Part shown: in pieces, positions 4,054-60,286 of the stretch
How positions within the stretch are numbered: position 1 is the first letter of the stretch
Layout: each line of letters begins with the position of its first letter
Virus record (IMG/VR): IMGVR_UViG_3300042868_003730
Coordinates: 64,001-128,000 of that record
Source: a virus
DNA: 64,000 nucleotides
Direction: 5' to 3' (one strand)
Made by a program: the position numbers and the translations under genes
Notes under the pieces: model-generated
Told to the model about the DNA's origin: nothing
The model's database searches: none
What the model saw: only the letters and a program-made list of their open reading frames with translations

Positions 4054-4056
4054 ATG

Positions 4057-36839: not shown

Positions 36840-36849
36840 GGAAACAATA

Positions 36850-37164: not shown

Positions 37165-37165
37165 T

Positions 37166-37549
37166 ATGATTATTTTAACTCAAGAAATACTTGACGCTGT
37201 AGGTGTTTGTGCTGATGGTCAGCGTGTTGCCGAAGAGTTTAATTGTATTGGTATTGATCTCGCTATTGGTATACAGATTATGGAAGACAATAATACTGGA
37301 TATGCCAAATGGGCCAGAGATTTATACTCAAACAGAATAGCACTAAAGTTATCAAATCATTATGAATATATTCAATACCTGGTCTTTGACCCAGTCAATA
37401 ATCACTACAAAGCCACACCAAATGAATCTGATGTGGCAGGAATCAAACAACAAATAATTGAAGATAATCCAGGTGTGGACCAGTCGCAGATCCTCATCTA
37501 CGAAGAGATCAAATCTTTAGATGGATCAATTCAAAGATTTCTATTATAA
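37166..37549 (+). CDS. hypothetical protein
   Basis: Part of ORF 37130..37549; the ATG at 37166, just after the upstream stop, is the likelier start. Confidence 0.55.
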   Translation: MIILTQEILDAVGVCADGQRVAEEFNCIGIDLAIGIQIMEDNNTGYAKWARDLYSNRIALKLSNHYEYIQYLVFDPVNNHYKATPNESDVAGIKQQIIEDNPGVDQSQILIYEEIKSLDGSIQRFLL

Positions 37550-37552
37550 ATA
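37545..37552 (+). promoter_or_regulatory. late promoter TATAAATA (exact T4 consensus)
   Basis: Precedes the membrane-protein pair and the 146-aa structural gene. Confidence 0.7.
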
Positions 37553-37581
37553 GATAGCACCCAGACACCATAAACCGTATA

Positions 37582-37947
37582 ATGAAAACCTTAATAAGAA
37601 ATCTACTGCCGCAGGATACAAGAAGCGTTGAATTTCCCTCAGCAGTGGGTCTTATTATCTGTTCAATTATGTTGTTCTTCAACCTAATTCCTAATGTTTA
37701 TCATATTGGTTTCTGGTGCGTGGTGACATTTATGCTCGGAGTGGTGTATATTGTATCTCTACTTCATTTCCCTAAACTAGATTGCTGTCGTCCAGTCTTA
37801 TCCTGGTTGGCAGGATCATTTTGGATCTGGTTGACATTTTCGCAGCCGTTATCTATTATGGCAATACCAGTGTTCTTTCTTGGTGTTTCTAATATTGTGG
37901 CATTCCTTATAAATACAGTAATATTGAGTGAAACATGGAGACCATAA
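37582..37947 (+). CDS. multi-pass membrane protein (about 4 TM)
   Basis: Four hydrophobic stretches in 121 aa. Confidence 0.65.
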   Translation: MKTLIRNLLPQDTRSVEFPSAVGLIICSIMLFFNLIPNVYHIGFWCVVTFMLGVVYIVSLLHFPKLDCCRPVLSWLAGSFWIWLTFSQPLSIMAIPVFFLGVSNIVAFLINTVILSETWRP

Positions 37948-44784: not shown

Positions 44785-45620
44785 TGTTTTCGACTCCATA
44801 CTATCATGAACTCATCAAAAAGACCACTATTGGATTTGGTGCTCTTTTCAGTCAGATTAAAGTAATCCGTAGGAATCCTGCTTCTGGTGCTCAGGCGCAG
44901 GTAATCTCTGTACCTATTGCCTTTGGTCCAAAGGAAAAGATTCTTACAAGACTGGATCAAGATCCATCCTTAACTGGTCATACTTATATCACTCTTCCGA
45001 GAATGGCATTTGAGATTACAGGTTATAACTATGACACCAGTAGAATGGTCAATAGGAATAACAAAATCCAATGTTATAAAGACCAAACTCTATCGGCGAT
45101 ATATTCTCCTGTTCCGTATAACATTGAATTCTCATTGTATGTTCTAACTAAGGGAACAGAGGATGGTCTGGCTATTATTGAGCAGATCCTACCATTGTTT
45201 ACTCCTGAGTATTCATTTACAGTAAATGCTATTCCTGAGATGAATATCTCACAGGATATTCCAGTTGTGTTAAATGGTATTTCTGTGTCAGATGATTATG
45301 AAGGTGACTTTGCTACTAGGCGTCTTGTTACACACACACTTAATTTCACTGCAAAAATAAATCTCTTTGGTGATCTCAAGACTTCTGGTGTTATTACGAG
45401 GGTTGATGCTGATATTAAGAAATTCGAGAATTATACTGCGACGATGGATGATGAAGGGAACATTGTTGTTGATGTATGGAATATGACGTCAAGAGAATCA
45501 ATGCAAAATTCATTGGCAGCATCCACATCAACTTCTGCAACTACTTCTGGCGCAGCAACAAAAGCAGATTACACTCCATTGGCAGCAAACATCACTGTCT
45601 CGGCAACTGCTACTGCTTAA
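44781..45620 (+). CDS. gp15: tail sheath stabiliser / tail terminator (gp15) with a C-terminal extension
   Basis: YHE.IKK...GFG.LF, VPIAFGPKEK.L.RL, TLPRMAFEI, PVPYNI.F.L, QILP.F.P, DDYEGDF..RR. Confidence 0.93.
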   Translation: MMFSTPYYHELIKKTTIGFGALFSQIKVIRRNPASGAQAQVISVPIAFGPKEKILTRLDQDPSLTGHTYITLPRMAFEITGYNYDTSRMVNRNNKIQCYKDQTLSAIYSPVPYNIEFSLYVLTKGTEDGLAIIEQILPLFTPEYSFTVNAIPEMNISQDIPVVLNGISVSDDYEGDFATRRLVTHTLNFTAKINLFGDLKTSGVITRVDADIKKFENYTATMDDEGNIVVDVWNMTSRESMQNSLAASTSTSATTSGAATKADYTPLAANITVSATATA

Positions 45621-47209
45621 TGGCAACTGTCTTTTATCAGGCGAACCCGAATCTTAAGAATGTCGGAGTTCCAATTGAATATACTACTGAGCAGGTAGAA
45701 GAATACATCAAGTGTAAACTAGACCCTATCTATTTCATCAAGAAATATATTAAGATCATCTCTCTTGACCTTGGTCTGATAAATTTCGATTTGTATGATT
45801 ATCAGATTCGATTCATAAATCAAATTCACGATAGTCGCCGAGTGCTTGGTATGTTTCCGCGCCAGCACGGAAAGACGACCACAGTAGCTGCCTACCTCTG
45901 CTGGTATCTGTTATTCAATGACAGTAAGACCGTCGCTATCCTTGCCAATAAGGCAGCAGCAGCTCGAGAAATTATGTCTCGTCTTCAGTTGATGTATGAG
46001 TATATTCCGAAGTGGCTACAACAAGGCGTGGCTGAATGGAACAAAGGATCGATCTCACTGGAGAATAACAGCAAGGCATTTACTGCTGCTACCAGCTCTA
46101 GTGGTATTCGTGGTAAATCCGTAAACTTTCTTTATGTTGACGAAGCAGCCATTATCCCGAATACAGTGGCTGATGAATTCTTTACTGCGACTTACCCAAC
46201 AATTTCTGCTGGTGAGACAACTAAGATTGTTCTGACATCAACTCCACTTGGATTGAATCACTTCTGGAAATTCTGGACAGAGGCGGTGTCGAAGATTAAT
46301 GGATTTATTCCAGTAAGAGTTGAATACTGGGAACATCCCGACCATGACGATGCTTGGGCTGCTCAACAGAAACAACTTCTTGGTGATTTGAAATACCGTC
46401 AGGAGATTCTGATGGATTTCCTTGGATCAGCTGCTACTTTGATTGATCCAGCAGCTATCCAAAGAATGGCAGTTGAAGCGACAATATATAACCAAAATGG
46501 TATGTTGGTTTATGATAGACCAGAAAAGAATAAAGCGAGTTATGTTATCACAGTTGATACTGCAAGTGGAGTTGGTGGTGATGCAAGTGCATTCTCTGTG
46601 GTTCGCATTGATATACTGCCATATAAAGTAGTAGCGAGATATAAGAATAATACGATCTCACCATTGTTATATCCATCATTGATCCATAGGTGGGCAAAAG
46701 AATATAACGATGCCTGGGTTTTAATTGAACTAAATAAGAATGAGCAAGTCCCATACATCTTACAGAATGAGTTGGAGTATGAAAATATTGTTTATGTAAA
46801 TCGAGGTGCTAAGGGTCAGACTGTTACTGGTGGTTTCGGCGGCGGAAAGACCCAATTGGGTGTTGTGACTGATAAGAAAACCAAGAGAATTGGTTGTTCT
46901 ATGTTTAAGACATTGGTCGAAGAACATAAACTGATTATTCCTGACGCAGATATTATAAGTGAGATATCTACGTTTATTGAGCAGAGAGGCAGTTATGCTG
47001 CTGATGATGGAAAGAATGATGATCTTGTAATGACTCTAGTTTTATTTGGATGGTTGACCAGCCAATCATTCTTCAAAGAACTCACTGATATTGATTTGAG
47101 AAAAGACATTTACGACGCTAGAATTAGACAAATTGACGAAGAGACATTACCTGCTGGGTTTTTCGTTGATGGGTCTGAATCTGGTATAGAAGAAATTCTA
47201 AATTTTTGA
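45620..47209 (+). CDS. gp17: terminase large subunit (gp17)
   Basis: PRQHGKTTT (Walker A), ILANK, YVDEAA (Walker B), STPLGLNHFWK, nuclease VDTASG.G.D and DDLVM. The ATG at 45620 overlaps the gp15 stop (TAATG). Confidence 0.97.
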   Translation: MATVFYQANPNLKNVGVPIEYTTEQVEEYIKCKLDPIYFIKKYIKIISLDLGLINFDLYDYQIRFINQIHDSRRVLGMFPRQHGKTTTVAAYLCWYLLFNDSKTVAILANKAAAAREIMSRLQLMYEYIPKWLQQGVAEWNKGSISLENNSKAFTAATSSSGIRGKSVNFLYVDEAAIIPNTVADEFFTATYPTISAGETTKIVLTSTPLGLNHFWKFWTEAVSKINGFIPVRVEYWEHPDHDDAWAAQQKQLLGDLKYRQEILMDFLGSAATLIDPAAIQRMAVEATIYNQNGMLVYDRPEKNKASYVITVDTASGVGGDASAFSVVRIDILPYKVVARYKNNTISPLLYPSLIHRWAKEYNDAWVLIELNKNEQVPYILQNELEYENIVYVNRGAKGQTVTGGFGGGKTQLGVVTDKKTKRIGCSMFKTLVEEHKLIIPDADIISEISTFIEQRGSYAADDGKNDDLVMTLVLFGWLTSQSFFKELTDIDLRKDIYDARIRQIDEETLPAGFFVDGSESGIEEILNF

Positions 47210-47227
47210 GGCAAGCAAACGCATTTT

Positions 47228-47234
47228 CTAAATA
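47228..47234 (+). promoter_or_regulatory. late promoter CTAAATA
   Basis: Intergenic, before gp18. Confidence 0.75.
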
Positions 47235-47285
47235 ATAAAGAGCTAAACCTCAACGAATTTGTAACAAATAAAAGAAGGAAATATA

Positions 47286-49238
47286 ATGGCGATTCAATTA
47301 TCCCCGTCTGTAGTGGTTCAAGAACGAGATCTAACGAACGTAATTCCCGCAGTTTCTGCTTCTGCTGGCGCGACGGTCATTGATGCTGTCTGGGGTCCAG
47401 TACTAGAAGTAACGACTGTAGACTCAGAAAACGCACTCGCAGCTCAGTTCGGTAAGCCAAATGCAGGTAATGCAGCCAGCTGGTTTACTGCAGCTAACTT
47501 CCTGTCGTACGCAGACAACCTTAAAGTTGTTCGTACTGATACCTCGGGTCAAAGAAATGCTGTTGCAGCTACAACCGGAACAGTTGATTCTTTCACTATT
47601 ACGCCCGGAAGTGGTTATACGCTTGCTCCTACATTAGCCTTTGCTGCCCCTCCTGCTGGCGGAATTCAGGCTACTGCAGTTGCCGAAGTAACAGCTGGCG
47701 CCATTACTGCAGTCAGAATCATTAATCCAGGTGCTGGTTATCTTTCTGCCCCTGCAGTGACACTTACAGTAGTTAGTGGCGGTGCGGGTGGTGCTGTTAC
47801 TGCTATTCTGAATACGACTAGTGGTGTTAAATTAAATAACGAAACAGATTATGACTCTATTTATTCAGCTGGTGATAAGCCAGTTGGACAATGGGTAGCG
47901 AAATATCCAGGTCTTCTTGGCAACAGCCTTAAAGTCGTGATGGCTGATGCGTCACAATGGGCTGGTTGGGCTTCACTTGGGTATCAAAGTTATTTCTCAG
48001 CTGCTCCAGGAACAAGTACTTATGCATCTTCACGCGGCGGTAGCGGTGATGAAATTCATATTATTGTTATTGATGAAGACGGAAGATTCACTGGAACACA
48101 GAATACCGTTCTTGAGACATACGCTTTCCTTTCTAAAGCATCAGATGCGAAGAAGGAAGATGGATCGACTGCTTATTATAAAAATGCTATCAATACGCAA
48201 TCCGCGTATATTTGGTGGGCCAATCACCCAGCAGGAATGACAGGTCCAAATTGGGGACTTTCTGCTGAGGGTCGATCATTCTCATCCCTTGCTAGTGCAA
48301 ATTCGTTTTCATTAGCTGGTGGTTTAGATGATACCGCAAGCACAAATGCACAAGAAATTGCTGCTTTCAACTTGTTCGCTGATAGTGAATCGCTTGACGT
48401 TAACCTGCTTATGTGCGCCAAGGCTGACACGACTCTTGCTAACCACGTAATTCAAAATATTGCTGAAGTTAGAAAAGATTGCGTCGCTTTCGTTTCTCCA
48501 CAGAACATTAACGGTGGTGACCCTCTAATTGGGGATACTTCTGCTATTGCTGCTTCGATTATTGCTTACCGTAATGTCATCACTTCTAGCTCTTACGCTG
48601 TTATTGACTCTGGTTACAAGTATCAATATGACCGTTACAATGACGAGTACCGTTGGGTTCCACTGAACGGCGACATTGCTGGTCTTTGCGCTCGCACGGA
48701 CTTCACCAATGATCCTTGGTTCAGCCCAGCTGGTCTAAATCGTGGTCAGATTAAGAATGTTGTTAAGTTGGCATTCAACCCACGCAAGACTGATCGTGAC
48801 AATCTTTACAATAATGGAGTCAACCCAGTAGCATCATTCCCAGGTCAAGGTGTTGTTCTGTTTGGTGATAAGACTGCATTGGCCAAACCAAGCGCATTCG
48901 ATCGAATCAACGTTCGCCGTCTGTTCATTACGCTTGAGAAGGCAATCTCTACTGCTGCTAAGTATCAGTTGTTTGAGTTCAATGATGGATTTACTCGTGC
49001 TCAGTTCAAGAATATCGTTGAACCTTTCCTGCGTGATGTTAAGGGGCGTCGTGGTATTACTGAATTCTTGGTTGTGTGTGATGACACTAACAACACTAGC
49101 GAAGTTATCGACACGAATCGCTTTGTTGCTGATATCTATATCAAGCCAGCGCGTAGCATCAACTTCATCCAGTTGAATTTCATCGCGACGCGCACTGGTG
49201 CATCTTTCAATGAAATCGCTGGCGGTTCAGCTGCTTAA
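47286..49238 (+). CDS. gp18: tail sheath protein (gp18)
   Basis: QLSPSVVVQERDLT, RKDCVAFVSP, PWFSPAGLNRG, FDRINVRRLF, FEFND.FTR, IYIKPARSINFI.LNF.ATRTG. Confidence 0.98.
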   Translation: MAIQLSPSVVVQERDLTNVIPAVSASAGATVIDAVWGPVLEVTTVDSENALAAQFGKPNAGNAASWFTAANFLSYADNLKVVRTDTSGQRNAVAATTGTVDSFTITPGSGYTLAPTLAFAAPPAGGIQATAVAEVTAGAITAVRIINPGAGYLSAPAVTLTVVSGGAGGAVTAILNTTSGVKLNNETDYDSIYSAGDKPVGQWVAKYPGLLGNSLKVVMADASQWAGWASLGYQSYFSAAPGTSTYASSRGGSGDEIHIIVIDEDGRFTGTQNTVLETYAFLSKASDAKKEDGSTAYYKNAINTQSAYIWWANHPAGMTGPNWGLSAEGRSFSSLASANSFSLAGGLDDTASTNAQEIAAFNLFADSESLDVNLLMCAKADTTLANHVIQNIAEVRKDCVAFVSPQNINGGDPLIGDTSAIAASIIAYRNVITSSSYAVIDSGYKYQYDRYNDEYRWVPLNGDIAGLCARTDFTNDPWFSPAGLNRGQIKNVVKLAFNPRKTDRDNLYNNGVNPVASFPGQGVVLFGDKTALAKPSAFDRINVRRLFITLEKAISTAAKYQLFEFNDGFTRAQFKNIVEPFLRDVKGRRGITEFLVVCDDTNNTSEVIDTNRFVADIYIKPARSINFIQLNFIATRTGASFNEIAGGSAA

Positions 49239-49296: not shown

Positions 49297-49836
49297 GTGG
49301 CAGATATCTCGCAATTTAAAGCCCAGATGATTCAAGGCGGAGCACGTGCTAACCAGTTCCGCGTTGAAATCACATTCCCAACTTTTGTGCAGAATGGTGG
49401 TCTGGCTGGTCAGAAACTACAGTTCTTAGCAAAATCATCGACTCTTCCGCAATCTTCTGTGTCAGATGTTGCTGTTATGTATCGTGGTCGCCCAGTGCAC
49501 TTTGCAGGTGAACGCGAATTCCAGCCTTGGGGCATCGAAGTATACAATGATAACGACTTCGTTATCCGAAATGCATTCGAGGCATGGATTGATAGCATCC
49601 AGAACGCAGAAAACACAAATGGTATTCAACAACCTGGTCTGTATCAAGTAGACATGAGCGTAATCCAATTGGATCGTTCAGACCGTGAAGTTAAGCGCTA
49701 CAGATTCGTTGATGCATATCCAACAGAAGTTGGCTCTATTGCTCTTGATTGGGAAACCAACAATCAGATCGAAGTTTTCCCAGTGACTTTCCAGTATAAT
49801 TATTTTACAAGCCCAACGTCCCAGGGCGTTCTATAA
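49297..49836 (+). CDS. gp19: tail tube protein (gp19)
   Basis: GGARANQFRV, LP.S....V.V.YRGR...FAGEREF..W...VYND.DF.IR.AFE.W, QLDR, AYPT.VG.I.LDW. Confidence 0.97.
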   Translation: MADISQFKAQMIQGGARANQFRVEITFPTFVQNGGLAGQKLQFLAKSSTLPQSSVSDVAVMYRGRPVHFAGEREFQPWGIEVYNDNDFVIRNAFEAWIDSIQNAENTNGIQQPGLYQVDMSVIQLDRSDREVKRYRFVDAYPTEVGSIALDWETNNQIEVFPVTFQYNYFTSPTSQGVL

Positions 49837-52467: not shown

Positions 52468-53100
52468 ATGAAGTTCCTTAGAGAATCAGTCAATACCAGT
52501 GATATTAGAGTTATCACTGAAGGCATCCAGAAAGATCTATTCATTGAAGGCATCTTTGCGCAAGCAGAAACAAAGAATAGAAATGGCAGAGTATATCCAC
52601 AGAAGATCATGGAATCTGCTGTTAAGACTTATGTCAATGAATATGTTTCTTCCAATCGTGCACTTGGTGAATTATCTCACCCAGAGAATCGCCCAACAGT
52701 AAAGCCAGAATTAGCAAGCCACCTTGTTACTGAATTCCGTATGGATGGTAATAATGTTATGGGTAAGGCGAAGGTACTCAACACACCACAGGGACAGATC
52801 GTTAAGGGTTTGCTTGAGGGTGGAGTGAAACTTGGCGTATCTACTCGTGGTCTTGGATCAGTCACTGAGAGAGCTGGGTCGACGTATGTTGGTGATGACT
52901 ATACGTTAATGGCAGTGGATGTGGTATCTGATCCATCTGGTATTGATTGCTGGGTTAACGCAATCAATGAGAGTCAAGATTGGACGATCACTGATGACGG
53001 AAGAATCGTCGAAGCGATCAGAAAAGAATTGAAGAAGCAGAAACTAACTGAAGACAAGGCTTTGGCTATGTTCAGTAAGTTTTTACGCGATATCAAATAA
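52468..53100 (+). CDS. gp21: prohead protease (gp21)
   Basis: FIEGIFAQAE.KNRNGRVYP, RALGELSHP, G.KLGVSTRGLGS, VDVVSDPS. Confidence 0.97.
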   Translation: MKFLRESVNTSDIRVITEGIQKDLFIEGIFAQAETKNRNGRVYPQKIMESAVKTYVNEYVSSNRALGELSHPENRPTVKPELASHLVTEFRMDGNNVMGKAKVLNTPQGQIVKGLLEGGVKLGVSTRGLGSVTERAGSTYVGDDYTLMAVDVVSDPSGIDCWVNAINESQDWTITDDGRIVEAIRKELKKQKLTEDKALAMFSKFLRDIK

Positions 53101-53141: not shown

Positions 53142-53148
53142 CTAAATA
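53142..53148 (+). promoter_or_regulatory. late promoter CTAAATA
   Basis: Intergenic, before gp22-gp23. Confidence 0.75.
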
Positions 53149-53172: not shown

Positions 53173-54018
53173 ATGTCTATTGAACAAAAAATTGCACAAC
53201 TGATGGAACAGGCTAAACAGCTCGAGTCATCGGATGAAGTTGTTTCTATTGAAGAAGAAACAACTGAAGAAGTCATTGCTGAAGAAAACAAAGAACAAGT
53301 TCAGAAGATCGACCTTGGTACTCTTTTTGAAGGTGAAGAGTTCTCGGTAGAATTTAAGTCTAAGGCAGCTGAGTTATTTGAAGCTGCAGTAGAAGCTCGT
53401 ATCAAGCAAGAAATTGCTCAGATCGAAGAAGAAGTTTCACAGCGTTTAGTTAATGAGAGCGCTGAGTTAAAAGAGGGTCTTGTTGATAAAGTTGATGGAT
53501 ATCTCGACTACGTAGTCGAACAGTGGATGCAAAAGAATGAGCTCGCCCTTGATCGTGGTATTAAAGTCGAAATCTTTGAAAGTTTCGTAAGCGGAATGAA
53601 GGATCTTTTTGAAACTCATTATATCGAAGTTCCAGAAGAAAAGTTTGACCTAATGGAAAGTGTCGACGCAAAAGCAAAAACTCTTGAAGAACAAGTAGAT
53701 TTTCTTACTGCACAAAACGTTGAATTACAGCAGAAGTTTAAGTTAGTCGCAAAAGAAAGACAAATCGAAGAAGCTGCTAAAGAGCTGACCGATTTGGAAG
53801 CAGAGCGATTCAAACAACTCGCTGAAGAATTGGCGTATGATGATGAAGAATCATTCGGAAAGAAATTAGAACTCGTAAAAGAGAACTATATTTCGAAGTC
53901 AAAACAAGTGAAGGCAGTTGTTGAGTCAGTGGTAACTGATTCGCCTGTTGAACTTAATGAAGAAAAGCAAATCGATGCATCGATGGCGCGTTATATGCAT
54001 GCCTTCAAAGCACGATAA
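53173..54018 (+). CDS. gp22: prohead core scaffold (gp22)
   Basis: EFK.KA...FEAAV, KVD.YLDYVVEQWM..NELA...GI..EI.ESF..GMK.LF..HYIEVPEEK.D. Confidence 0.95.
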   Translation: MSIEQKIAQLMEQAKQLESSDEVVSIEEETTEEVIAEENKEQVQKIDLGTLFEGEEFSVEFKSKAAELFEAAVEARIKQEIAQIEEEVSQRLVNESAELKEGLVDKVDGYLDYVVEQWMQKNELALDRGIKVEIFESFVSGMKDLFETHYIEVPEEKFDLMESVDAKAKTLEEQVDFLTAQNVELQQKFKLVAKERQIEEAAKELTDLEAERFKQLAEELAYDDEESFGKKLELVKENYISKSKQVKAVVESVVTDSPVELNEEKQIDASMARYMHAFKAR

Positions 54019-54045: not shown

Positions 54046-55383
54046 ATGGAACAATCTCGTCCTGATCTAGTTAAGAAGTGGGCTCCTATTCTTGAGCACG
54101 CTGATCTTCCACAAATCAAAGATAACTACCGCAAGGAAGTTACTGCTGTTCTTCTTGAGAACCAAGAACGTGCTCAGCGCGAAGAGCGTCGTGCCCTGTT
54201 CGAAGACATTCCAAACGGATCGGCTGTTAGCGGTACATTCATGCCTGACAGTGGTGGTGTTGCTAAGTTTGACCCAGTTCTGATTAGCCTGGTTCGCCGT
54301 GCTATGCCAGCAATGGTCGCTTATGACATGTGCGGCGTTCAGCCAATGACCCAGCCTACAGGTCTGATCTTCGCAATGAAGTCAACCTATATGACAAGTG
54401 CTGGTGTTCGTGGTTCAGAAGCTCTGTTCAACGAAGCTGACACTGGTTACTCGGGTGTTGCTGCTGGTGGTACTGCTGGTACTTCCAACACTGGTGCTGC
54501 TCAGTCTGCACTGAATGGTTCTACAACTCCGATCACATCGGGTACTGCTTTCCCAACGGCAACTGCTGAAAACCAAACTGGTACTGGTACTGGTACTACC
54601 CAGCAAAATAACGGCGCTGGTTTCAACCAGATGGGATTCACAATCGAAAAGACTTCAGTTACTGCGCAATCGCGTGCTCTGAAGGCTGAGTACTCTGTTG
54701 AACTCGCACAGGACTTGAAGTCGGTTCACGGTCTTGACGCTGAAGCCGAGCTGAGCAACATCCTTTCGCAAGAAATCCTGGCTGAAATTAACCGCGAAGT
54801 TATTCGTACGGTTTACAACTCAGCTAAAGTTGGTGCTCAAGTCGGTACTGCTACTGCTGGTATTTTCGACCTTGACGTTGACTCGAATGGTCGTTGGTCA
54901 GTTGAGAAGTTCAAGGGTCTGATGTTCCAAATCGAACGCGAAGCAAATGCAATTTACCAAACGACACGTCGTGGTCGCGGTAACTTCATCGTTTGCTCAG
55001 CTGACGTTGCTTCGGCTCTGGCAATGGCTGGTGTTCTTGACTACGCTCCTGCGCTGTCAACGAACCTGAACGTTGACGAAGCAAGCAACACGTTTGCTGG
55101 TGTTCTGAATGGTAAGTACAAAGTGTATGTTGATCCATATGCTGCTAACCAATCAGCTGACCAATTCCTGTTGGTTGGTTACAAGGGTTCATCGGCATTC
55201 GACGCTGGTATCTTCTACTGCCCATACGTTCCGCTGCAACTGTACCGCGCTACAGACCCAGCAACGTTCCAGCCGAAGATCGCTTTCCGTACTCGCTACG
55301 GTATCGTTGCTAATCCGTTCACGGCTCTGACCGCTGGCGACAACATCTACTTCCGCAAGGTTCGCGTTCAGAACCTGATGTAA
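54046..55383 (+). CDS. gp23: major capsid protein (gp23)
   Basis: KWAPILEH, FDPVLISLVRRAMP, GVQPM..PTGLIFAM, SRALKAEYS.ELAQDLK.VHGLDAE.EL.NIL, GRWSVEKFKGL, FYCPYVPLQ, FQPKIAF.TRYG. Confidence 0.99.
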   Translation: MEQSRPDLVKKWAPILEHADLPQIKDNYRKEVTAVLLENQERAQREERRALFEDIPNGSAVSGTFMPDSGGVAKFDPVLISLVRRAMPAMVAYDMCGVQPMTQPTGLIFAMKSTYMTSAGVRGSEALFNEADTGYSGVAAGGTAGTSNTGAAQSALNGSTTPITSGTAFPTATAENQTGTGTGTTQQNNGAGFNQMGFTIEKTSVTAQSRALKAEYSVELAQDLKSVHGLDAEAELSNILSQEILAEINREVIRTVYNSAKVGAQVGTATAGIFDLDVDSNGRWSVEKFKGLMFQIEREANAIYQTTRRGRGNFIVCSADVASALAMAGVLDYAPALSTNLNVDEASNTFAGVLNGKYKVYVDPYAANQSADQFLLVGYKGSSAFDAGIFYCPYVPLQLYRATDPATFQPKIAFRTRYGIVANPFTALTAGDNIYFRKVRVQNLM

Positions 55384-55404
55384 TCGGAAACGATGTAGTA
55401 AACC

Positions 55405-55428
55405 AAAAGGGAGCTTCGGCTCCCTTTT
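55405..55428 (+). terminator. intrinsic terminator after gp23
   Basis: AAAAGGGAGC-TTCG-GCTCCCTTTT. Confidence 0.92.
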
Positions 55429-55435
55429 CAGTTGT

Positions 55436-55442
55436 CTAAATA
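55436..55442 (+). promoter_or_regulatory. late promoter CTAAATA for the post-capsid operon
   Basis: Directly after the gp23 terminator, about 30 nt before ORF 55474. Confidence 0.75.
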
Positions 55443-55473
55443 ATGGTATTGATATATTTTTACAGAGGGCAAT

Positions 55474-57003
55474 ATGTCACAGTTAAACGAAGCAATTAGA
55501 CAAAAAGATTTCGGAAGAGCAACTGGGCTTGTTCTTAAGTATCTCCGTAAGAAAATCGGAAACAAAGTATATCTGTATCCAGTTCCAGAAAAGTTCATTC
55601 CATCTGGTGGAAGTGCAATGACTGGAATTCGTTTCTTCCTAGAATCAAATAAATCTATTCGATTTAACTGGAAGACAACTATTGATACATCAAATGGTCT
55701 GCTATCAATGGATTATTGGGATGGGTCAAAACTCCCACAACCAAACCCAAGTGAGCACATCAAATTCGATGAAGCGCAATCTCTGGTAAAAGTATTACCA
55801 TTTGTCGTTGAGTTCTTGGAAGGTAAAGTAGATAAGTCTGGTGTCTATGTCACTGAAGATGTTTCTGCTGAATTTAATCTGGTGCTTGATTTTCGTACAG
55901 ACCTAACTGAAGCAACTTATACATCAGGCGAACTCGCAAAGACTATTTCGAATGTTATCAATGCATTCAAGAGCAATATTCAAATTGCTGACCAGTATAA
56001 GAATGGCGGGAATAAAAAGTATGGTCCGCGCTGGGAACAAGCAATCAAAGAAATTAGAAAACAATATCCAGAATTGTTTACCAAACAAGGTGCAAAGATT
56101 AACATTGATGCTGCTAATGCATCGAAGATTGACTCATCAAAGATTCTAGCAGCAATCTCTGGTGGTGAAGACGCAGTTGCCTTTACTGTTACTGCTGGTG
56201 GCAAAGAAGAACACATCGTTGATGGCGCAAGCGAAGCTGACATCGATCGCATGACGTATGAAGAGCAACTGGACTCACTGAAGTCTGGTATGAAGTTGCT
56301 TATGAGTAATGCCACAAACTCTATGTGGGTCGGTGGTCGTGGTGGTACTGGTAAGACACAGACTGTTGAAGATATGCTCCACGCTGCTGGTAAAACAGAT
56401 GGCGATGGTTACTTTAAGATTACTGGCTCAGCAACTCCAACTGGTATCTATAGAATTCTTTACACGCACCGCAAAGATATCGTTCTTTTCGATGACTCGG
56501 ACTCGGCTCTAAACGATCAAGAAGGTCGTAATCTCTTTAAGGCAGCGTCGGATACGAAGAAGGTTCGTAAAGTATCTTGGATGAAGGGTGGCAAGAACTT
56601 CGTTGATCCAGCTGACTTCGATGAAGAGGATGATAACGAAGACGTTCTACCACGTTACTTTGACTTCACAGGTAAGATTATCTTCATCTCGAATATGCCA
56701 TTGGCTAAACTAGATCCAGATGGTGCTCTGCGCACTCGTGGTTTCGTTATGAACGTTGACCCGACCAATGAAGAGATCTATGATTTTATGAATAAGATTG
56801 TTGACTTTATTCCATTGGATGTTAACTATCCATTGAGCAAAGAGTCCAGAATGGAAGTCGTTGATGTTTTGAGAGCAAGAAAGATCTCTGAGAAGAGTGC
56901 CAACCTTCGCTCGCTAGTACGTGGTCTAAACGTACGCGCTGGTATTGAATCACAGGGTGGGTCAGAAGAAGAATGGCGTCGTTTCGTCAAGATGTTTGCT
57001 TAA
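55474..57003 (+). CDS. protein with a C-terminal P-loop/AAA-type ATPase domain
   Basis: Walker A GRGGTGKT, Walker B IVLFDDSD, sensor-like KIIFISN, ALRTR arginine-finger-like motif. The N-terminal ~250 aa are unassigned. Confidence 0.8.
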   Translation: MSQLNEAIRQKDFGRATGLVLKYLRKKIGNKVYLYPVPEKFIPSGGSAMTGIRFFLESNKSIRFNWKTTIDTSNGLLSMDYWDGSKLPQPNPSEHIKFDEAQSLVKVLPFVVEFLEGKVDKSGVYVTEDVSAEFNLVLDFRTDLTEATYTSGELAKTISNVINAFKSNIQIADQYKNGGNKKYGPRWEQAIKEIRKQYPELFTKQGAKINIDAANASKIDSSKILAAISGGEDAVAFTVTAGGKEEHIVDGASEADIDRMTYEEQLDSLKSGMKLLMSNATNSMWVGGRGGTGKTQTVEDMLHAAGKTDGDGYFKITGSATPTGIYRILYTHRKDIVLFDDSDSALNDQEGRNLFKAASDTKKVRKVSWMKGGKNFVDPADFDEEDDNEDVLPRYFDFTGKIIFISNMPLAKLDPDGALRTRGFVMNVDPTNEEIYDFMNKIVDFIPLDVNYPLSKESRMEVVDVLRARKISEKSANLRSLVRGLNVRAGIESQGGSEEEWRRFVKMFA

Positions 57004-57004
57004 T

Positions 57005-58786
57005 ATGAAAGTAGTGCATAAAGATTTACAGGCTCTTGGTGTTGATCAGGAGTCTGTAAGAAAATTCTTGAAGTACAAAGAAGCAGATGCTAAGGTAGGG
57101 GATGACCCGTATGCTTCATCTGCTAGTGAAAAGGCAAATAAGACCAAGGCGTATCGCGAACTGCATAAAGACCTCACCGCTAAAACCAAGAATCCTAATG
57201 TTGCGATTCAAACTCTAAGTAACATTCATGACTATAAAGGAAAAGAAGCGATGTATGAAAGTATGATGTCATTCAAATCTTTCCTCGAGATCAATGAATT
57301 GTCTAACGTCACCCTGGCTTCTTATAAAAAGAAAGCAGGAGAACAGGCAACAGCTGCTGATAAGGCAGGTGACTTCAAGAAAGGTAATAAGCGATTCTCT
57401 GGTATTACCAAAGCAACGAAGAAACAATTTGCTAATCCAGTAAAAGAAGATTTTAATATCTGTGAAACAGCAGAATCTGGACTCGCTGCCAAAGCAGAAA
57501 AATCTGGTATCTCAATCGGTACGCTACGCAAAGTTTATAATCGCGGTATGGCAGCGTGGAACTCTGGCCATCGCCCAGGAACCACTCCACAACAATGGGG
57601 TATGGCTCGCGTAAACTCTTACATCACCAAAGGCAAAGGTACATATCACGGAGCAGATAAAGACTTGCGTGAAGAAACCGTACAGGAGTCTGGTGGTACT
57701 GCTGTGTGGAAAAGTGGATGTTGTCATGTTGAAAAATATGGAGATGATGTATTTGCTCTATATGTTAATGATAAAAAACATAAATTTTACACTTCATTAA
57801 AAGATGCTAAAGCTGCGTCAGTTGAGTTTAATGGGAAAAATCTAGAAGAAAAAGAAGTTCCAAAAGATCCGGAGTCTGGACTGCCAAAGAAATATGTTGC
57901 TGGTCTTTCATCCTCTACTGCTAAAGCCAGGGCTGCGCACTTCAATAAAATGGATAAGAAAAGCGACAGCGACCCAACTGCATATGAACCAGCACCTGGA
58001 GACGCAACTGCTAAAACCAAAACAAGTAAGCATACATTAAAGTATCGCGAAATGTATGGAGAAAGTATTGATGAGGAAATACTGGAAGCATGCTGGGTTG
58101 GTTATAAACAAGTTGGTGTGAAGAAAAAGGGAAATAGAATGGTTCCCAACTGCGTGGCAGAAGATGTTGATTATATGTTCCATCCTCTTATCGAAGCAGT
58201 AAATGCAATTGATAGTGGTGAGTATGACTACGAGGGCCAGATGGCCAGATTACAGTTACAAACTATCTGCCGCAACTCAAAAGATTTAGTTGACATGCTT
58301 TCTGACGATGAGAATATGCCAGAGTGGGTTCAATCTAAAATAACTTTAGCTCAAGATTATATTAGTTCAGTTAGAGATTACTTACAATCTAAAGAAGAAT
58401 TGGGTGAAAATCTAGAAGAACAATTCGATATAATCGAAGAAGTTGTTGAAGAGCTATCAGCTGAATATGGTATTGACTCTGAAGTAATTTGGGAAAACTT
58501 TGACGAGTTTACAGACGAAGAATTACTAGAATACGCAGTTGATGCCAAAGGGCACAAATCGTCCACTGGTGGATTGACACAAAAAGGTCGAGATGCTTAC
58601 AACGCCAAAGGCGGAAATTTGCAAGCACCAGTGACTACTCCGCCATCCAAACTGAAGCCAGGAAGTAAGGCAGCAAATCGTCGTAAGTCTTTCTGCGCAC
58701 GTATGGGTGGTATGGAAGGTGCCATGAAAAAACCAAATGGTGAACCCACTCGCAAAGCACTAGCTCTGCGTAAATGGAATTGCTAA
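57005..58786 (+). CDS. multi-module basic/acidic protein, probable internal head polyprotein
   Basis: ATG at 57005, just after the ATPase stop. Contains recurrent small phage modules (AEKSG....LRKVY.RG.AAW..GHRPG.TPQQW..ARVNS; CW.GY..VG.KKK...VPNCV; LPEWVQSKIT.A.DY-type; GGL..KGR..Y...RRKSFCARM...KWNC) separated by acidic (L/I/V)xE linkers. Confidence 0.75.
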   Translation: MKVVHKDLQALGVDQESVRKFLKYKEADAKVGDDPYASSASEKANKTKAYRELHKDLTAKTKNPNVAIQTLSNIHDYKGKEAMYESMMSFKSFLEINELSNVTLASYKKKAGEQATAADKAGDFKKGNKRFSGITKATKKQFANPVKEDFNICETAESGLAAKAEKSGISIGTLRKVYNRGMAAWNSGHRPGTTPQQWGMARVNSYITKGKGTYHGADKDLREETVQESGGTAVWKSGCCHVEKYGDDVFALYVNDKKHKFYTSLKDAKAASVEFNGKNLEEKEVPKDPESGLPKKYVAGLSSSTAKARAAHFNKMDKKSDSDPTAYEPAPGDATAKTKTSKHTLKYREMYGESIDEEILEACWVGYKQVGVKKKGNRMVPNCVAEDVDYMFHPLIEAVNAIDSGEYDYEGQMARLQLQTICRNSKDLVDMLSDDENMPEWVQSKITLAQDYISSVRDYLQSKEELGENLEEQFDIIEEVVEELSAEYGIDSEVIWENFDEFTDEELLEYAVDAKGHKSSTGGLTQKGRDAYNAKGGNLQAPVTTPPSKLKPGSKAANRRKSFCARMGGMEGAMKKPNGEPTRKALALRKWNC

Positions 58787-58798
58787 GGTAGAAGGATA

Positions 58799-59305
58799 AT
58801 GAAATCATTTAAGAGTTATCTTACTGAACAATACGCAGGAAACTACGTCTGTCTGGAAACAGAAGATATGTCGTTTTTCTTTGTAGACTGTGGAATTCCT
58901 GAGCCAACATCTGGGGTAGTTCCTCCAGATTTTCACTGTACAGTTATGTACTCTGAAATATCAGTTATTGAACCAGAAAGAGTTGCTAGCCTATTGCGTA
59001 CTTCTGGATTCAATAAACCATACATCGGTAAGATAATTGGGTTTGATCTTTTTGATTCACCTGAAGATAATACCAAGTGTTCTCTTGTCGCTAAAATAGA
59101 ATGCCCTGAATTGATGCAAGCGCATGACTATCTAAAGGGTATTGGTCTACAACATTCTTATTCAGAATATTCACCGCATATTACTCTACGATATGGAATG
59201 GATATTATTGAGGCAGCTAAATACAAAGAATTGCTAAGTGGTTGTACTGGTTCGGTTACGATGGCAAAGTTTAGAAGTGAGCCAATAAATAAACATTACG
59301 TATGA
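58799..59305 (+). CDS. acb1: 2H phosphoesterase, Acb1 / T4 57B-like (anti-CBASS nuclease family)
   Basis: Two HxT motifs (FHCTVMYS and YSPHITLRY), G.YV near the N-terminus, H.Y....G..H.Y..Y.PHITL.Y and terminal EP motif, all paralleling T4 57B/Acb1. Confidence 0.8.
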   Translation: MKSFKSYLTEQYAGNYVCLETEDMSFFFVDCGIPEPTSGVVPPDFHCTVMYSEISVIEPERVASLLRTSGFNKPYIGKIIGFDLFDSPEDNTKCSLVAKIECPELMQAHDYLKGIGLQHSYSEYSPHITLRYGMDIIEAAKYKELLSGCTGSVTMAKFRSEPINKHYV

Positions 59306-59835
59306 CTATTCTAACTTGCCCATCGCCGAGTAACATTAACCCATTAAATCCAAATGGATTTTTGTTCTCGGTCAGTAAACTCCCGGAACTAACATTCTTC
59401 GTTCAGGACGTAGAGTTGCCTTCTCTTAGTATCGGGACTGTTATCCAGTCATCAAGTGTTCAAGATATTAAGATTCCAGGAGAGACAGCTGATTTTGGTA
59501 GTCTTAGTGTTGAGTTTCTTGTAGATGAACAGTTCGCCAACTATAAAGCAATTTATGCCTGGATGGTTGGATTGACATACCCAGAGACCCATGATATGTA
59601 TAAGGCATTCTTAGCCTCTGCAAAGAATGCGAACTCATACAGTGAACTGGCGAAGGGTTACTCTGATGCATCATTGACTATTCTCGATAGCAGCAATAAT
59701 CCAGTTCAGAGAATTACGTTTATTGATGCGTTTCCAACATCGCTAAGTACATTACCATTTACCTCTCAGAGTAGTGATGTTCAATTCCTGAGAGCAACTG
59801 CTACGTTTGACTATACATATTATAAATTATCTTAA
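59302..59835 (+). CDS. gp3: tail completion / tube terminator (gp3)
   Basis: N.LNPNGF.F...KLP...FF.Q...LP....G, PGE...F..L.V.FLVDE...NY..IY.WM, SDA.L.IL, F.DAFP.SLS. ATAAATA lies upstream at 59285. Confidence 0.9.
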   Translation: MTILTCPSPSNINPLNPNGFLFSVSKLPELTFFVQDVELPSLSIGTVIQSSSVQDIKIPGETADFGSLSVEFLVDEQFANYKAIYAWMVGLTYPETHDMYKAFLASAKNANSYSELAKGYSDASLTILDSSNNPVQRITFIDAFPTSLSTLPFTSQSSDVQFLRATATFDYTYYKLS

Positions 59836-59851
59836 CTTCCTGTAATATATT

Positions 59852-60286
59852 ATGACACTCGATGAAATTCGAGAGCAGTGGGAAACTGACTGCTCAATAG
59901 ACGACCTCCATCCTGACAAAGCATCAGCCACTAGTCCAAGTCTTCATGCGAAGTACCTTGGTGAGTTGATGAACTATAGACTCAAACTCACCAAAACGCA
60001 GTTTGAGTACAGCCAGCTGCGCGCCAAGAAGTCTAAGTATTTTCGTGGAGAAATGACTCGCGAAGAACTTGAAGAGAATGGCTGGGAGCAGTGGCAATAC
60101 AAAACACTCAAGTCCGAAGTCGAGGCATTACTCGACGCCGACACACAGACTCAGACTATCCTTGCTCGAGTTGAGTATTTGAAATCCGTTATCTACTACT
60201 TGGAATCAGTTCTCGGTGAGATTAGGTCAAGATCATTCCATGTGAAAAACATAATAACTTGGGCTCAGTTTAGGGCAGGCGCGTGA
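59852..60286 (+). CDS. uvsY: recombination mediator UvsY
   Basis: EQWE.D..ID, P.LHAKYL, K..YF.G, LKSEV...L.AD, R.F..KN.I.W..F..G. Confidence 0.93.
   Translation: MTLDEIREQWETDCSIDDLHPDKASATSPSLHAKYLGELMNYRLKLTKTQFEYSQLRAKKSKYFRGEMTREELEENGWEQWQYKTLKSEVEALLDADTQTQTILARVEYLKSVIYYLESVLGEIRSRSFHVKNIITWAQFRAGA

Follow-up and report, generated by a model that had tools for sequence, protein, structure and literature searches.

The T4 capsid targeting sequence (CTS), MKTYQEFIAE (PMC8442874), combines targeting at residues 4 and 7 with processing at residues 8 and 10 (PMC9026906). In the T4 internal proteins IPI, IPII and IPIII it forms a leader of about ten residues, with aromatics at positions 4 and 7, L or I at position 8 and E at position 10. 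The locus described here shares with the T4 system this leader, its occurrence on unrelated proteins, the presence of gp21 and gp22 homologues, a late-promoter motif ahead of the operon, and candidate counter-defence cargo; T4 ipI itself adjoins acb1 (57B). The two differ in several respects. The T4 proteins are small, whereas those considered here are an AAA+ ATPase, a multi-module protein of 593 aa and an enzyme of the Acb1 family, which has no known packaged members. One leader of the source phage is internal and another truncated, and the locus lies directly after gp23 rather than at the T-even ipI or ipII-ipIII sites.

A second comparison is offered by cyanophage S-SM1, whose purified virions contain the GC190 cytidylyltransferase (25 peptides) and its neighbours GC1453, GC1454 and GC1455 (PMC3037559). 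Three of these four proteins begin MKKFSAFLNE, MNLNE and MLSFKELQE, so that the cluster (T4-GC190, 1453, 1454, 1455) places like-tagged non-structural proteins in purified particles; neither the leader nor N-terminal processing is reported in that study (Sullivan et al. 2010, PMC3037559). The source genome carries tagged DUF6267 and cytidylyltransferase-like homologues of the S-SM1 genes at genome positions 34865-37756, and S-SM1 has no detectable homologue of ORF2 or ORF3.

The window, the whole 64,000-nucleotide stretch analysed, comes from a complete 148-kb uncultured marine T4-like phage akin to pelagiphage HTVC008M and the cyanomyophages. The genes downstream of gp23 form a transcription unit inside the head-gene module, which we infer to be late in timing. 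The features of this module, with ↓ marking a cut site, are as follows.

52468..53100, + strand: gp21 prohead protease (Pfam Peptidase_S77, E 1.2e-42)
53173..54018, + strand: gp22 scaffold, the prohead core (Pfam T4_CASP, E 7.7e-60)
54046..55383, + strand: gp23 major capsid protein (Pfam Gp23, E 3.8e-139)
about 55405..55430, + strand: terminator-like hairpin after gp23 (10-bp stem, UUCG loop, U run)
55436..55442, + strand: CTAAATA late-promoter-like core, 38 nt upstream of the ORF1 start
55474..57003, + strand: ORF1, 509-aa AAA+ ATPase with an N-terminal beta-rich domain (phrog_1250, E 2.4e-26)
57005..58786, + strand: ORF2, 593-aa modular protein of the DUF5824...DUF6321 family (Pfam DUF5824 E 1.3e-19, DUF6321 E 7.8e-22)
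58799..59305, + strand: ORF3, 168-aa Acb1-clade 2H phosphodiesterase (Pfam Acb1 E 7.3e-14)
59302..59835, + strand: tail-tube-family gene, gp19-like and probably gp3 (phrog_45 'tail tube', E 3.2e-36)

The gp23 terminator, CTAAATA, the three close-set genes and their motifs all lie where the original prediction had placed them. The unit runs from CTAAATA through ORF1, ORF2 and ORF3 to the tail-tube-family gene, with gaps of 1 nt between ORF1 and ORF2 and 12 nt between ORF2 and ORF3; the start of the tail-tube-family gene overlaps the ORF3 stop by ATGA, coupling it translationally to ORF3. The hairpin has a dG of -21.1 kcal/mol (z -5.06), equalled by none of 200 shuffles. CTAAATA is the late-promoter core published for the T4-like phage Aeh1 (PMC1524935), and it is strongly strand-biased across the genome, with 30 + strand copies against 4 on the - strand. 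Some 15 of the 30 lie no more than about 60 nt 5' of a long-ORF start, including that of gp22 (CTAAATA at 53142, 31 nt upstream), and in the relatives L007 and L085 the motif occurs 20 to 30 nt 5' of post-gp23 leader genes.

Both partners of a T4-type loading system are encoded just upstream. The gp21 homologue is 43% identical to T4 gp21, with catalytic H71 and S125 within the conserved GELxHP and GVSxRGLGS blocks, and is the presumed enzyme processing the tagged proteins, for which gp22 is the presumed docking partner. In the alignment, gp23 LFE53↓D corresponds to T4 gp23 LTE↓AEIGG, which we take to be the T4 maturation site.

The gene order gp23-...-Acb1-like-tail-tube-family gene-uvsY-uvsW-gp55 is kept in loci L006-L015. 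L006-L009 and L012-L014 have a leader-bearing Acb1-like gene in the interval from gp23 to the tail gene, as, judged by alignment, do L010 and L011; in L085 this slot is filled by another tagged gene, a lytic transglycosylase. The proposal of an operon of cargo does not hold as a general rule, since the relatives' gap between gp23 and the Acb1-like gene contains homing-endonuclease-like or TnpB-like genes instead.

The leader is complete in ORF3.

58799..58828, + strand: ORF3 CTS-like leader MKSFKSYLTE↓Q (F4, Y7, L8 and E10 match the T4 CTS)

ORF3 scores 52.1 bits against the Pfam Acb1 cut-off of 27, and matches PDB 7T26 by sequence (E 8e-7). Its model (pLDDT 93.8) has as top Foldseek matches the T4 Acb1 (gene 57B) structures 7T27 and 7T26 and the Burkholderia phage BCSR5 phosphodiesterase, the identity to 7T26/7T27 in the Foldseek alignment being only about 20%. 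Both HxT catalytic motifs are intact, as in T4 Acb1 (HCT 46-48, HIT 127-129), and a cyclic oligonucleotide substrate and Acb1-type activity would be expected. The leader agrees with T4 MKTYQEFIAE and with IPI MKTFKEF... at residues 4, 7, 8 and 10; it lies outside the crystallised Acb1 core, which begins at GLYVAAKF, and its ten residues have a mean pLDDT of 68. M1, S3, F4, K5, L8 and E10 are kept in six of six homologues at identities down to 60%. More widely, 41 of 150 Acb1-like cluster representatives start with aromatic-4, aromatic-7, [LIVM]-8 and E-10, the leader being present in 27 of the 50 nearest and only 4 of the 50 most distant. T4 and Cronus Acb1 begin MMEFKDFSTG and MNNFKEFSTG; these T-even enzymes retain FK(D/E)F without the cleavage site, so the motif could in part be an old feature of the family, in contrast to the complete, putatively cleavable leader of ORF3. 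The setting also differs: T4 Acb1 is found beside 57A, and ORF3 within the head module, after gp23 and before the tail gene.

The strongest alternative concerns timing rather than packaging. In that account the Acb1-like enzyme, perhaps with its neighbours, acts in the cytoplasm of the producing cell, where an anti-CBASS hydrolase produced alongside gp21 would degrade the signal as it appeared. T4 gp21 is reported to suffice for CBASS activation (Hobbs and Kranzusch 2026 preprint, PMC12991175), cutting an I/LxE-containing CD-NTase loop, with signalling from about 14 min, just after the prohead has formed (PMC12991175). An Acb1-like gene would then sit in a late head operon because the prohead protease triggers CBASS late, and the leader would be a relic or have some other role, for instance in tying the enzyme to protease activity. 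Three points fit this account: ORF3 belongs to the gp21 module, about 3.4 kb 3' of the late-promoter motif; T4 Acb1, active in lysates of infected cells, is not described as part of the virion (PMC9117128); and the T-even enzymes lack the cleavage site. It leaves unexplained the clade-wide conservation of the full ten-residue leader, L8 and E10 included, the same leader on many unrelated T4-like phage proteins, and the tagged enzymes in S-SM1 virions. Overall we regard it as unlikely but as retaining an appreciable probability; it is also not exclusive, as the enzyme can be present both in a late cytoplasmic pool and in a packaged fraction. The suggestion that host defences are countered before any phage transcription is, for an anti-CBASS enzyme, doubtful because the prohead protease is reported to trigger CBASS late (PMC12991175).

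Head loading, the reading we prefer, takes a different form in ORF2.

57263..57298, + strand: ORF2 internal leader MMSFKSFLEINE↓L, residues 87-98 (corresponds to the N-terminus of most homologues)
57488..57670, + strand: DUF5824 module (Pfam residues 162-222)
58553..58777, + strand: DUF6321 basic C-terminal module (Pfam residues 517-591)

The ORF2 family is very large (5640 homologues among 8000 scored candidates), with N-termini such as MISFKDYQEHICE↓T, MKSFKNFIEEICE and MKSYKQFIAPICE. Judged from sequence, the internal MMSFKSFLEINE is the ancestral tagged N-terminus of the DUF5824/DUF6321 family; its internal position is due to an N-extension of about 86 residues in the lineage of the source phage, and this extension is confined to the closest relatives. 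Translation might conceivably also start internally, at MYES, which follows an AGGA-like motif. ORF2 contains 13 [LI]xE sites against 4.9 +/- 1.9 in shuffles, an excess of about 4 sd and an enrichment similar to or above that of gp21 (8 vs 2.2 expected) and gp22 (14 vs 7.3 expected). The sites are enriched and conserved at module borders: on either side of the DUF5824 module are the conserved sites ICE↓TA and DLxE↓E (L80 and E82 are invariant in alignment A4), and a conserved ELLE↓(A/Y)AVDAKG site precedes the DUF6321 module. The modules have pI values of 9.05, 9.85, 9.25 and 9.90, with one acidic stretch of pI 4.05.

In its (L/I)xE excess and head-module site ORF2 resembles T4 gp22, gp67 and gp68 and their derived internal peptides, and like the T4 core proteins it mixes mostly basic modules with one acidic stretch. 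It has no sequence similarity to gp22, gp67 or gp68, and its DUF5824 and DUF6321 modules show very strong conservation, suggestive of specific functions. A looser analogy is provided by adenovirus core-protein precursors, which the viral protease trims. DUF6321 also occurs alone, tagged in L066 (MKTFKQFIKE↓AAVDSKG) and untagged in podoviruses between the scaffold and capsid genes, and in the HTVC008M replication region DUF5824 is fused to a cytidylyltransferase. The occurrence of DUF6321 in podoviruses that have no prohead protease and the cytidylyltransferase fusion therefore mean that the domains alone do not imply processing.

ORF1 carries two sites.

55474..55491, + strand: ORF1 truncated leader MSQLNE↓A (matches the final residues of the homologues' full leaders in alignment)
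55903..55914, + strand: ORF1 internal LTE↓A site, residues 144-147 (ends a linker variable in length and sequence)

The ORF1 model (pLDDT 85.8) matches RuvB, NorQ, NSF and Vps4 at E 2e-6 to 1e-4 (Foldseek). Its C-terminal half is homologous to T-even NrdC.10 (phrog_1250; 25-28% identity over about 260 residues), an AAA+-like protein of about 326 aa without the N-terminal domain, leader junction and linker site of ORF1; NrdC.10 is encoded among the nrdC accessory genes, a long way from the head genes, and ORF1 among the head genes. MSQLNE↓A aligns at the E↓A junction of full tags such as MITFKEYIIE↓AIRQSDF. Most of 120 homologues keep the junction [LI]xE↓A[IV]R..DF, 103 having [LIVM]xE in the first 16 residues and 16 a full tag; the homologue in locus L024 begins MSMIKFSQYLLE and is followed by three further tagged genes. 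The ORF1 leader lacks the aromatic residues 4 and 7 needed for T4 targeting, and model residues 1-9 are of low confidence. The linker before LTE↓A has pLDDT 36-44; E146 is invariant, [LIV]xE-[A/G] is present in nearly all of 52 homologues, and both sites are conserved across these 52. Over its full length ORF1 shows no [LI]xE enrichment (4 vs 4.5 expected). ORF1 may be processed, and its loading is uncertain. The claim that each product bears a T4-type motif accordingly applies in full to ORF3, to ORF1 for the cleavage half only, and to ORF2 for a copy that is internal.

The distribution of the leader was surveyed with a degenerate DNA pattern against IMG/VR, which matched more than 120 stretches, 84 matches being read. 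In 80 of these the motif has no in-frame Met upstream and so reads as an ORF start. The tagged proteins are unrelated by Pfam, comprising S-AdoMet lyase, adenylate kinase, GNAT, lysozyme, lytic transglycosylase, cytidylyltransferase, DUF6267 and DUF6321 types, and 67 of 80 leader loci share genes with the source phage, often sheath, terminase or portal. The leader is absent from podovirus DUF6321 proteins, and a DUF6321 copy sharing a locus with source-phage-like genes carries it at the same AAVD.KG junction. Taken together, these observations support a real, portable, T4-type leader linked to phages with a gp21-type protease.

It is distinctly unlikely that the leader is no address tag and acts instead as a translation-start or expression element (AT-rich first codons, Lys-2) or as a structural part of the protein. 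Its codons are indeed AT-rich, an ATAAATA-type promoter lies within 20 nt of the ATG in many IMG/VR leader genes, which suggests very short 5' leaders in which the first codons could matter, and T-even Acb1 retains FK(D/E)F. Against an expression element, the synonymous positions vary freely (Thr ACA/ACT/ACC/ACG, Phe TTT/TTC 47:27, several Leu codons), this being the only informative variation as the search pattern itself fixed the residue classes at 4, 7, 8 and 10. Only a handful of the roughly 200 source-genome genes carry the leader, and podovirus DUF6321 does without it; a structural role is opposed by its absence from the crystallised Acb1 core.

Chance, with three unrelated accessory genes after gp23 bearing the Glu-ending motifs expected in acidic phage proteins, is already very unlikely: [LI]xE is a short, three-residue pattern favoured by Glu-rich helices, ORF1 has no site excess, the look-alike MFKSYQEFIGE within an unrelated ORF elsewhere in the source genome indicates that single leader matches can arise so, and the relatives' gp23-to-Acb1 gap is a mobile-gene hot spot, but leaders and junctions are conserved over hundreds of homologues in three unrelated families, 80 of the 84 pattern matches read as ORF starts, and the ORF2 site excess is large.

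Loading into the head thus remains the preferred reading, and we consider it reasonably probable that the products of ORF1-ORF3 are, to varying degrees, T4-type head-loading substrates. The part of the original prediction that made them head-loaded proteins is favoured by the portable, T4-type leader and the S-SM1 virion precedent, and is weakened for ORF1 by the missing targeting aromatics. Gene order, the motifs and their conservation, the folds and the tie between the leader and T4-like phages are observed; loading, cleavage and injection are what we infer. The short N-terminal leader would bind the scaffold core while the prohead forms, the leader-bound protein would then be trapped inside, and the gp21 protease would cleave the trapped proteins after (L/I)xE. 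ORF1 would contribute the cleavage half of a leader and, within a flexible linker, a second conserved site. ORF2, whose tagged start became internal in the lineage of the source phage, would probably be cut at its conserved (L/I)xE borders, the basic pieces, including DUF5824 and DUF6321, staying with the DNA and the acidic piece leaving the head, in a manner resembling T4 core proteins and internal peptides. ORF3, with its complete ten-residue leader, is the strongest candidate for an enzyme that would be packaged, trimmed and co-injected, and the phage probably loads at least two of the three proteins into its head.

The source record spans 147,921 bp with direct terminal repeats and is rated complete, and the phage is a T4-like myophage. 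The head module, with the gp15, terminase, sheath and portal genes on its upstream side, is followed by three genes designated ORF1, ORF2 and ORF3, and downstream of ORF3 by a tail-tube-family gene, uvsY, uvsW and gp55. The features of this segment of the window are as follows:

52468-53100, + strand: gp21 protease (Pfam Peptidase_S77, E 1.2e-42; PHROGs)
53173-54018, + strand: gp22 scaffold core (Pfam T4_CASP, E 7.7e-60; PHROGs)
54046-55383, + strand: gp23 capsid protein (Pfam and PHROGs)
55474-57003: ORF1, AAA+ ATPase
57005-58786: ORF2, modular protein with DUF5824 and DUF6321
58799-59305: ORF3, Acb1-like enzyme

Cyanomyophage capsid proteins are about 60% identical to gp23 of the window, and pelagiphage HTVC008M and Methylophilales phage Melnitz match fragments of ORF2. 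Megablast with the operon as query returned no match among 50,697 phage records, a set that may lack the window's own record; the NCBIfam and PADLOC profiles matched none of the three products, and Rfam gave no match within 55000-60000.

The sequence elements named in the original prediction, namely a terminator, CTAAATA, three tightly spaced genes and their motifs, are all present. The hairpin 3' of gp23 consists of a 10-bp stem, a UUCG loop and a U run (dG -21.1 kcal/mol, z -5.06), a stability equalled by 0 of 200 shuffles, and CTAAATA lies at 55436, 38 nt from the start of ORF1. This heptamer also forms the late-promoter core in the T4-like phage Aeh1 (PMC1524935). Across the whole genome it occurs 30 times on the + strand versus 4 times on the - strand, with about 15 of the + strand copies lying within about 60 nt upstream of the start of a long ORF, gp22 among them. 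ORF1 and ORF2 are separated by 1 nt and ORF2 and ORF3 by 12 nt, while ORF3 overlaps the next gene through ATGA. A simple scan found no terminator-like site at the junctions between genes and three weak ones within coding regions; scanning between gp23 and ORF1 found no sigma-70 promoter, and a weak sigma-70-like site may conceivably serve the operon. Given the CTAAATA pattern, the tight spacing, the coupling to the tail gene and the terminator-free junctions, late expression of the operon can reasonably be inferred.

A further CTAAATA copy occurs within ORF3 at 59217-59223, 85 nt upstream of the start of the tail-tube-family gene; it may drive that gene as an internal late promoter or have arisen by chance. 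The gene itself (59302-59835, 177 aa) matches 'tail tube' families (phrog_45; Pfam gp19 weakly), and its size and its place before uvsY-uvsW-gp55 favour its being gp3, the tail terminator of cyanophage-type genomes. An ORF at about 49297-49836, between the sheath and portal genes, is homologous to portal-adjoining ORFs in other T4-like loci and may be the true gp19.

The original prediction held that all three products carry motifs of the kind found in the cleavable N-terminal leader by which T4 loads internal proteins into its head, the capsid targeting sequence (CTS). Both components needed for this route, the gp21 protease and the gp22 scaffold core, are encoded by this phage. The gp21 of the window is 43% identical to T4 gp21 with the catalytic His and Ser conserved, and gp23 LFE53↓D (↓ marks a predicted cut point) aligns with T4 gp23 LTE↓AEIGG, which we take to be the T4 maturation site; this identity, the conserved catalytic pair and the aligned site make it plausible that the enzyme follows the T4 rule of cleavage after (L/I)xE. 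The T4 CTS is MKTYQEFIAE (PMC8442874), and T4 mutagenesis assigned targeting to residues 4 and 7 and processing to residues 8 and 10 (PMC9026906); T4 IPI, for example, starts MKTFKEFTSTTTPVSTITE↓A.

ORF3 is an Acb1-clade 2H phosphodiesterase, related to T4 57B (Acb1), which acts against CBASS, a host defence with cyclic-nucleotide signals. It scores 52.1 bits with Pfam Acb1 (PF23474; curated cut-off 27) and matches PDB 7T26 by sequence (E 8e-7), while its AlphaFold model (pLDDT 93.8) finds its best structural matches in Foldseek in Acb1 7T27 and 7T26 and the Burkholderia phage BCSR5 phosphodiesterase, followed more weakly by Usb1-type, poxvirus cGAMP phosphodiesterase and LigT-type enzymes. 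Cleavage of the cyclic oligonucleotides of CBASS is a predicted activity, and the fold is also like that of Usb1-type and LigT-type RNA phosphodiesterases at lower scores. The catalytic motifs H46-C-T48 and H127-I-T129 are invariant in a 42-sequence alignment. Residues 1-10 read MKSFKSYLTE, with F4, Y7, L8 and E10 agreeing with the full T4 CTS rule and a predicted site at LTE10↓Q, and the leader is kept in 6/6 close homologues (60-99% identity). An exhaustive HMMER search of the Acb1-like family, yielding 150 cluster representatives scored for aromatic-4, aromatic-7, [LIVM]-8 and E-10, found the leader in 27 of the 50 sequences nearest to ORF3, 10 of the middle 50 and 4 of the 50 most remote. 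Many distant members, like the crystallised Acb1 chain, begin at the first strand, G(N/T)YV, and the ORF3 model shows the leader as a short helix with reduced confidence; being absent from many distant members and from the crystallised chain and modelled less confidently, it is an add-on outside the catalytic fold. In T4 (NC_000866, 3592-4411), Acb1 (57B) starts MMEFKDFSTG, which is similar to the MKTFKEFTST start of the adjoining IPI; unlike ORF3, T4 Acb1 carries a targeting-like half of the CTS without the cleavage site.

ORF2 belongs to a very large family (5640 matches among 8000 scored candidates), most members of which start with the leader, for example MISFKDYQEHICE↓T, MLAFKEFNNSICE↓T, MKSFKNFIEEICE and MKSYKQFIAPICE. 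Only in ORF2 and its nearest relatives is the leader internal, behind the N-terminal extension MKVVHKDLQALG...; the leader's aromatic residues 4 and 7 are found only in the internal motif at residues 87-98, with a site at INE98↓L, and the close relative L006, an IMG/VR contig, has a perfect 10-mer, MMSFKSFIEE↓A, as its internal motif. ORF2 holds 13 [LI]xE sites against 4.9 +/- 1.9 in shuffles, the comparison counts being 8 versus 2.2 expected for gp21 and 14 versus 7.3 expected for gp22. In the family alignment, conserved sites of this kind mark the borders between strongly conserved modules (ICE↓T, DLxE↓E, EIxE↓ACW, FDLIE↓ and ELLE↓(A/Y)AVDAKG). Most of the modules are basic (pI 9.05, 9.85, 9.25 and 9.90), with one acidic stretch of pI 4.05, and the basic pieces would, by inference only, stay with the DNA. 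Against processing, DUF5824 also ends a cytidylyltransferase that HTVC008M encodes in its replication region. ORF2 bears the signs of a protease substrate, and its cleavage is predicted.

DUF6321 also occurs alone. In L066, a contig sharing several genes with this phage, a stand-alone DUF6321 gene starts MKTFKQFIKE↓AAVDSKG..., the leader being joined precisely where the polyprotein site would free the module. In the marine podoviruses S-CBP4 and HTVC031P the stand-alone version has no leader and is located as follows:

L003 (S-CBP4), 2738-2989: DUF6321 protein of about 82 aa, very basic, between the scaffold and major capsid genes
L017 (HTVC031P), 4010-4255: DUF6321 protein of about 82 aa, very basic, between the scaffold and major capsid genes

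The S-CBP4 copy is unannotated in its record. T7-like phages are not known to have a prohead protease. DUF6321 forms a natural control, with a leader in the contig sharing genes with this T4-like phage and none in the podoviruses in the same head-module context. No paper describing DUF5824, DUF6321 or the leader strings was found in the literature searched.

In the ORF1 model (pLDDT 85.8), a beta-rich N-terminal domain is joined through a low-confidence linker (residues 130-147) to a classical AAA+ module matching RuvB, NorQ, NSF and Vps4 in Foldseek. The P-loop alpha/beta domain, the helical lid and the Walker A (GRGGTGKT, 288-295) and Walker B (LFDDSD, 338-343) motifs, which are invariant or nearly so, identify it as AAA+; the Pfam AAA_16 match lies below the cut-off, and T-even NrdC.10 is homologous to the AAA+ half. 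Among 120 homologues compared at the N-terminus, 16 have full leaders (MITFKEYIIE↓AIRQSDF, MITFKHYLTE↓AVR, MLTFKEFITE↓AIR), an extended form being MIKFKNLLEQITQLNE↓AVR, while trimmed forms include MSQLNE↓AIR in this phage and MLLQE↓AIR and MYINE↓AIR in homologues; full, extended and trimmed leaders share a common E↓A junction in the alignment. The processing site LNE6↓A is conserved in homologues, and MSQLNE contains no aromatic residue at the targeting positions, so that loading of ORF1 in this phage is uncertain. An internal LTE↓A closes the linker, which varies in length and sequence, with [LIV]xE-[A/G] in nearly all homologues and E146 invariant. The family is often tagged; in the IMG/VR locus L024, the homologue starts MSMIKFSQYLLE and is followed by three more tagged genes, encoding a 317-aa protein, a DUF6267 ligase-like protein and a cytidylyltransferase-DUF5824 fusion.

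The leader stands on three unrelated families in this operon, with an (L/I)-x-E site conserved in homologues of all three, and it behaves as a portable tag elsewhere. A degenerate DNA pattern encoding M-[KINM]-[ST]-F-K-[EQ]-[FY]-[LIFM]-x-E matched more than 120 stretches of IMG/VR, in which the residue classes at 4, 7, 8 and 10 are not independent evidence because the pattern fixes them. Of the 84 matches read, 80 have no Met in frame ahead of the motif, which there reads as an ORF start. Of the 80 leader loci, 67 have genes in common with this T4-like phage, in many cases sheath, terminase or portal. A signal at the nucleotide level is argued against by the free variation of synonymous positions in the leader codons. 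The tagged proteins are unrelated and match 19 Pfam families, several overlapping on the same protein, including S-AdoMet lyase, DUF6267, adenylate kinase, GNAT, lysozyme, lytic transglycosylase, methyltransferase, cytidylyltransferase and DUF6321; the S-adenosylmethionine lyases, an activity known for anti-restriction, account for four of the 59 scanned tagged proteins of at least 90 aa (L018-L097). Many tagged genes in these loci have an ATAAATA-type promoter no more than 20 nt from the ATG, implying very short 5' leaders. A compact array on a 104-kb viral contig (L053:2357-3910) holds four consecutive genes, each starting MKTFKEYLEE or MKTFKEYIRE. No paper describing the leader in marine phages was found within a limited searchable literature.

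With a broader pattern, three more CTS-like tagged genes were found in this genome outside the window:

Genome 34865-36106: DUF6267 protein, MLDFRTYITE, CTAAATA 37 nt upstream, matching a virion-detected S-SM1 cluster
Genome 36119-37756: cytidylyltransferase-like protein, MKNYKSLIQE, CTAAATA 20 nt upstream, matching a virion-detected S-SM1 cluster
Genome 44903-47761: 952-aa protein, MKTFKELFE, CTAAATA 103 nt upstream, within the preceding ORF

A near copy of the T4 CTS, MFKSYQEFIGE, at about residue 105 of an unrelated ORF (genome 59620-60633) is probably due to chance and cautions against trusting single matches.

Purified virions of cyanophage S-SM1 contained the cytidylyltransferase T4-GC190, detected by 25 peptides (Sullivan et al. 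2010, PMC3037559), together with GC1453 (12 peptides), GC1454 (10) and GC1455 (7), in a paper that makes no mention of a leader (PMC3037559). The four genes adjoin in the S-SM1 record, where GC190 starts MKKFSAFLNE↓A, GC1454 MNLNE↓L and GC1455 MLSFKELQE↓K. Since no homologue of ORF2 or ORF3 was found in S-SM1, this proteome bears on the tag and not on those proteins; it is the strongest evidence available that N-termini of this kind occur on proteins that reach T4-like cyanophage particles, and is indirect for this operon.

The gene neighbourhood qualifies the unit itself. In the IMG/VR loci L006-L015 the order is gp21-gp22-gp23, a gap of 0 to 4 kb, the Acb1-like gene, a tail gene, uvsY, uvsW and gp55, with the leader read at the start of the Acb1-like gene in L006-L009 and L012-L014; in L007 this gene directly follows gp23 with CTAAATA upstream. 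The gap in most relatives holds homing-endonuclease-like or TnpB-like ORFs without a leader, paralleled in T4 by segD after gene 23, as in these loci:

L008, 7986-9997: gap with homing-endonuclease-like or TnpB-like genes
L009, 6050-9970: gap with homing-endonuclease-like or TnpB-like genes
L012, 6661-9999: gap with homing-endonuclease-like or TnpB-like genes

The expectation that relatives share tagged cargo within the gap was not borne out, most gaps being occupied by leaderless mobile-type ORFs. ORF1 and a shortened ORF2 were found only in the close relative L006 (ORF3 89% identical), and the conserved element of the segment is the Acb1-like gene alone. As the gap contents vary, the three genes are not a conserved unit, and the notion of a post-capsid 'cargo operon' as a general arrangement does not survive the comparison. 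In a different T4-like lineage (L085), the same slot holds a tagged protein with a lytic-transglycosylase domain, MKTFKQFMSE, behind CTAAATA.

The proposal of head-loaded cargo divides by gene: it is supported for ORF3, with its full CTS rule, plausible for ORF2, from its sites and the leader of its family, and weak for ORF1, where the aromatic residues are absent. The mechanism is the known T4 CTS route, varied here in its cargo, in leaders that are internalised or trimmed, and in a candidate polyprotein. A simple rival reason for the position of ORF3 would be that an Acb1-type gene is made late alongside the head genes against CBASS, with no packaging, which fits the report that the prohead protease is the trigger: T4 gp21 is sufficient to trigger CBASS, cutting an I/LxE loop of the CD-NTase (2026 preprint, PMC12991175), and signalling begins just after prohead formation (PMC12991175). 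Late timing, however, leaves the conserved and portable leader unexplained, and packaging and late timing can both be true. The same gp21-triggered, post-prohead onset (PMC12991175) weakens the earlier suggestion of a need for the enzyme ahead of any phage transcription. A broader scheme, which we consider possible though on the doubtful side, is that a marine T4-like clade pre-loads an anti-CBASS phosphodiesterase and a protease-matured, DNA-bound core of basic modules, the trimming protease being of the same enzyme family as the CBASS trigger, so that one activity would serve both cargo maturation and immune sensing. The proposed DUF5824/DUF6321 core would resemble the core proteins of some animal viruses that are trimmed by the viral protease.

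Should the tag function as it does in T4, abundant ocean phages would supply pre-made enzymes together with their DNA, in this case a cyclic-nucleotide hydrolase, and such cargo would be readable straight from genomes through a 10-residue signature. DUF5824 and DUF6321, present in thousands of marine phage proteins, are predicted to be head-internal and protease-released, and the tag would explain the older finding of 'metabolic' enzymes such as the cytidylyltransferase in purified cyanophage particles. The place of an Acb1-type gene in a head operon, together with its cleavable leader, connects with the report that CBASS senses the prohead protease.
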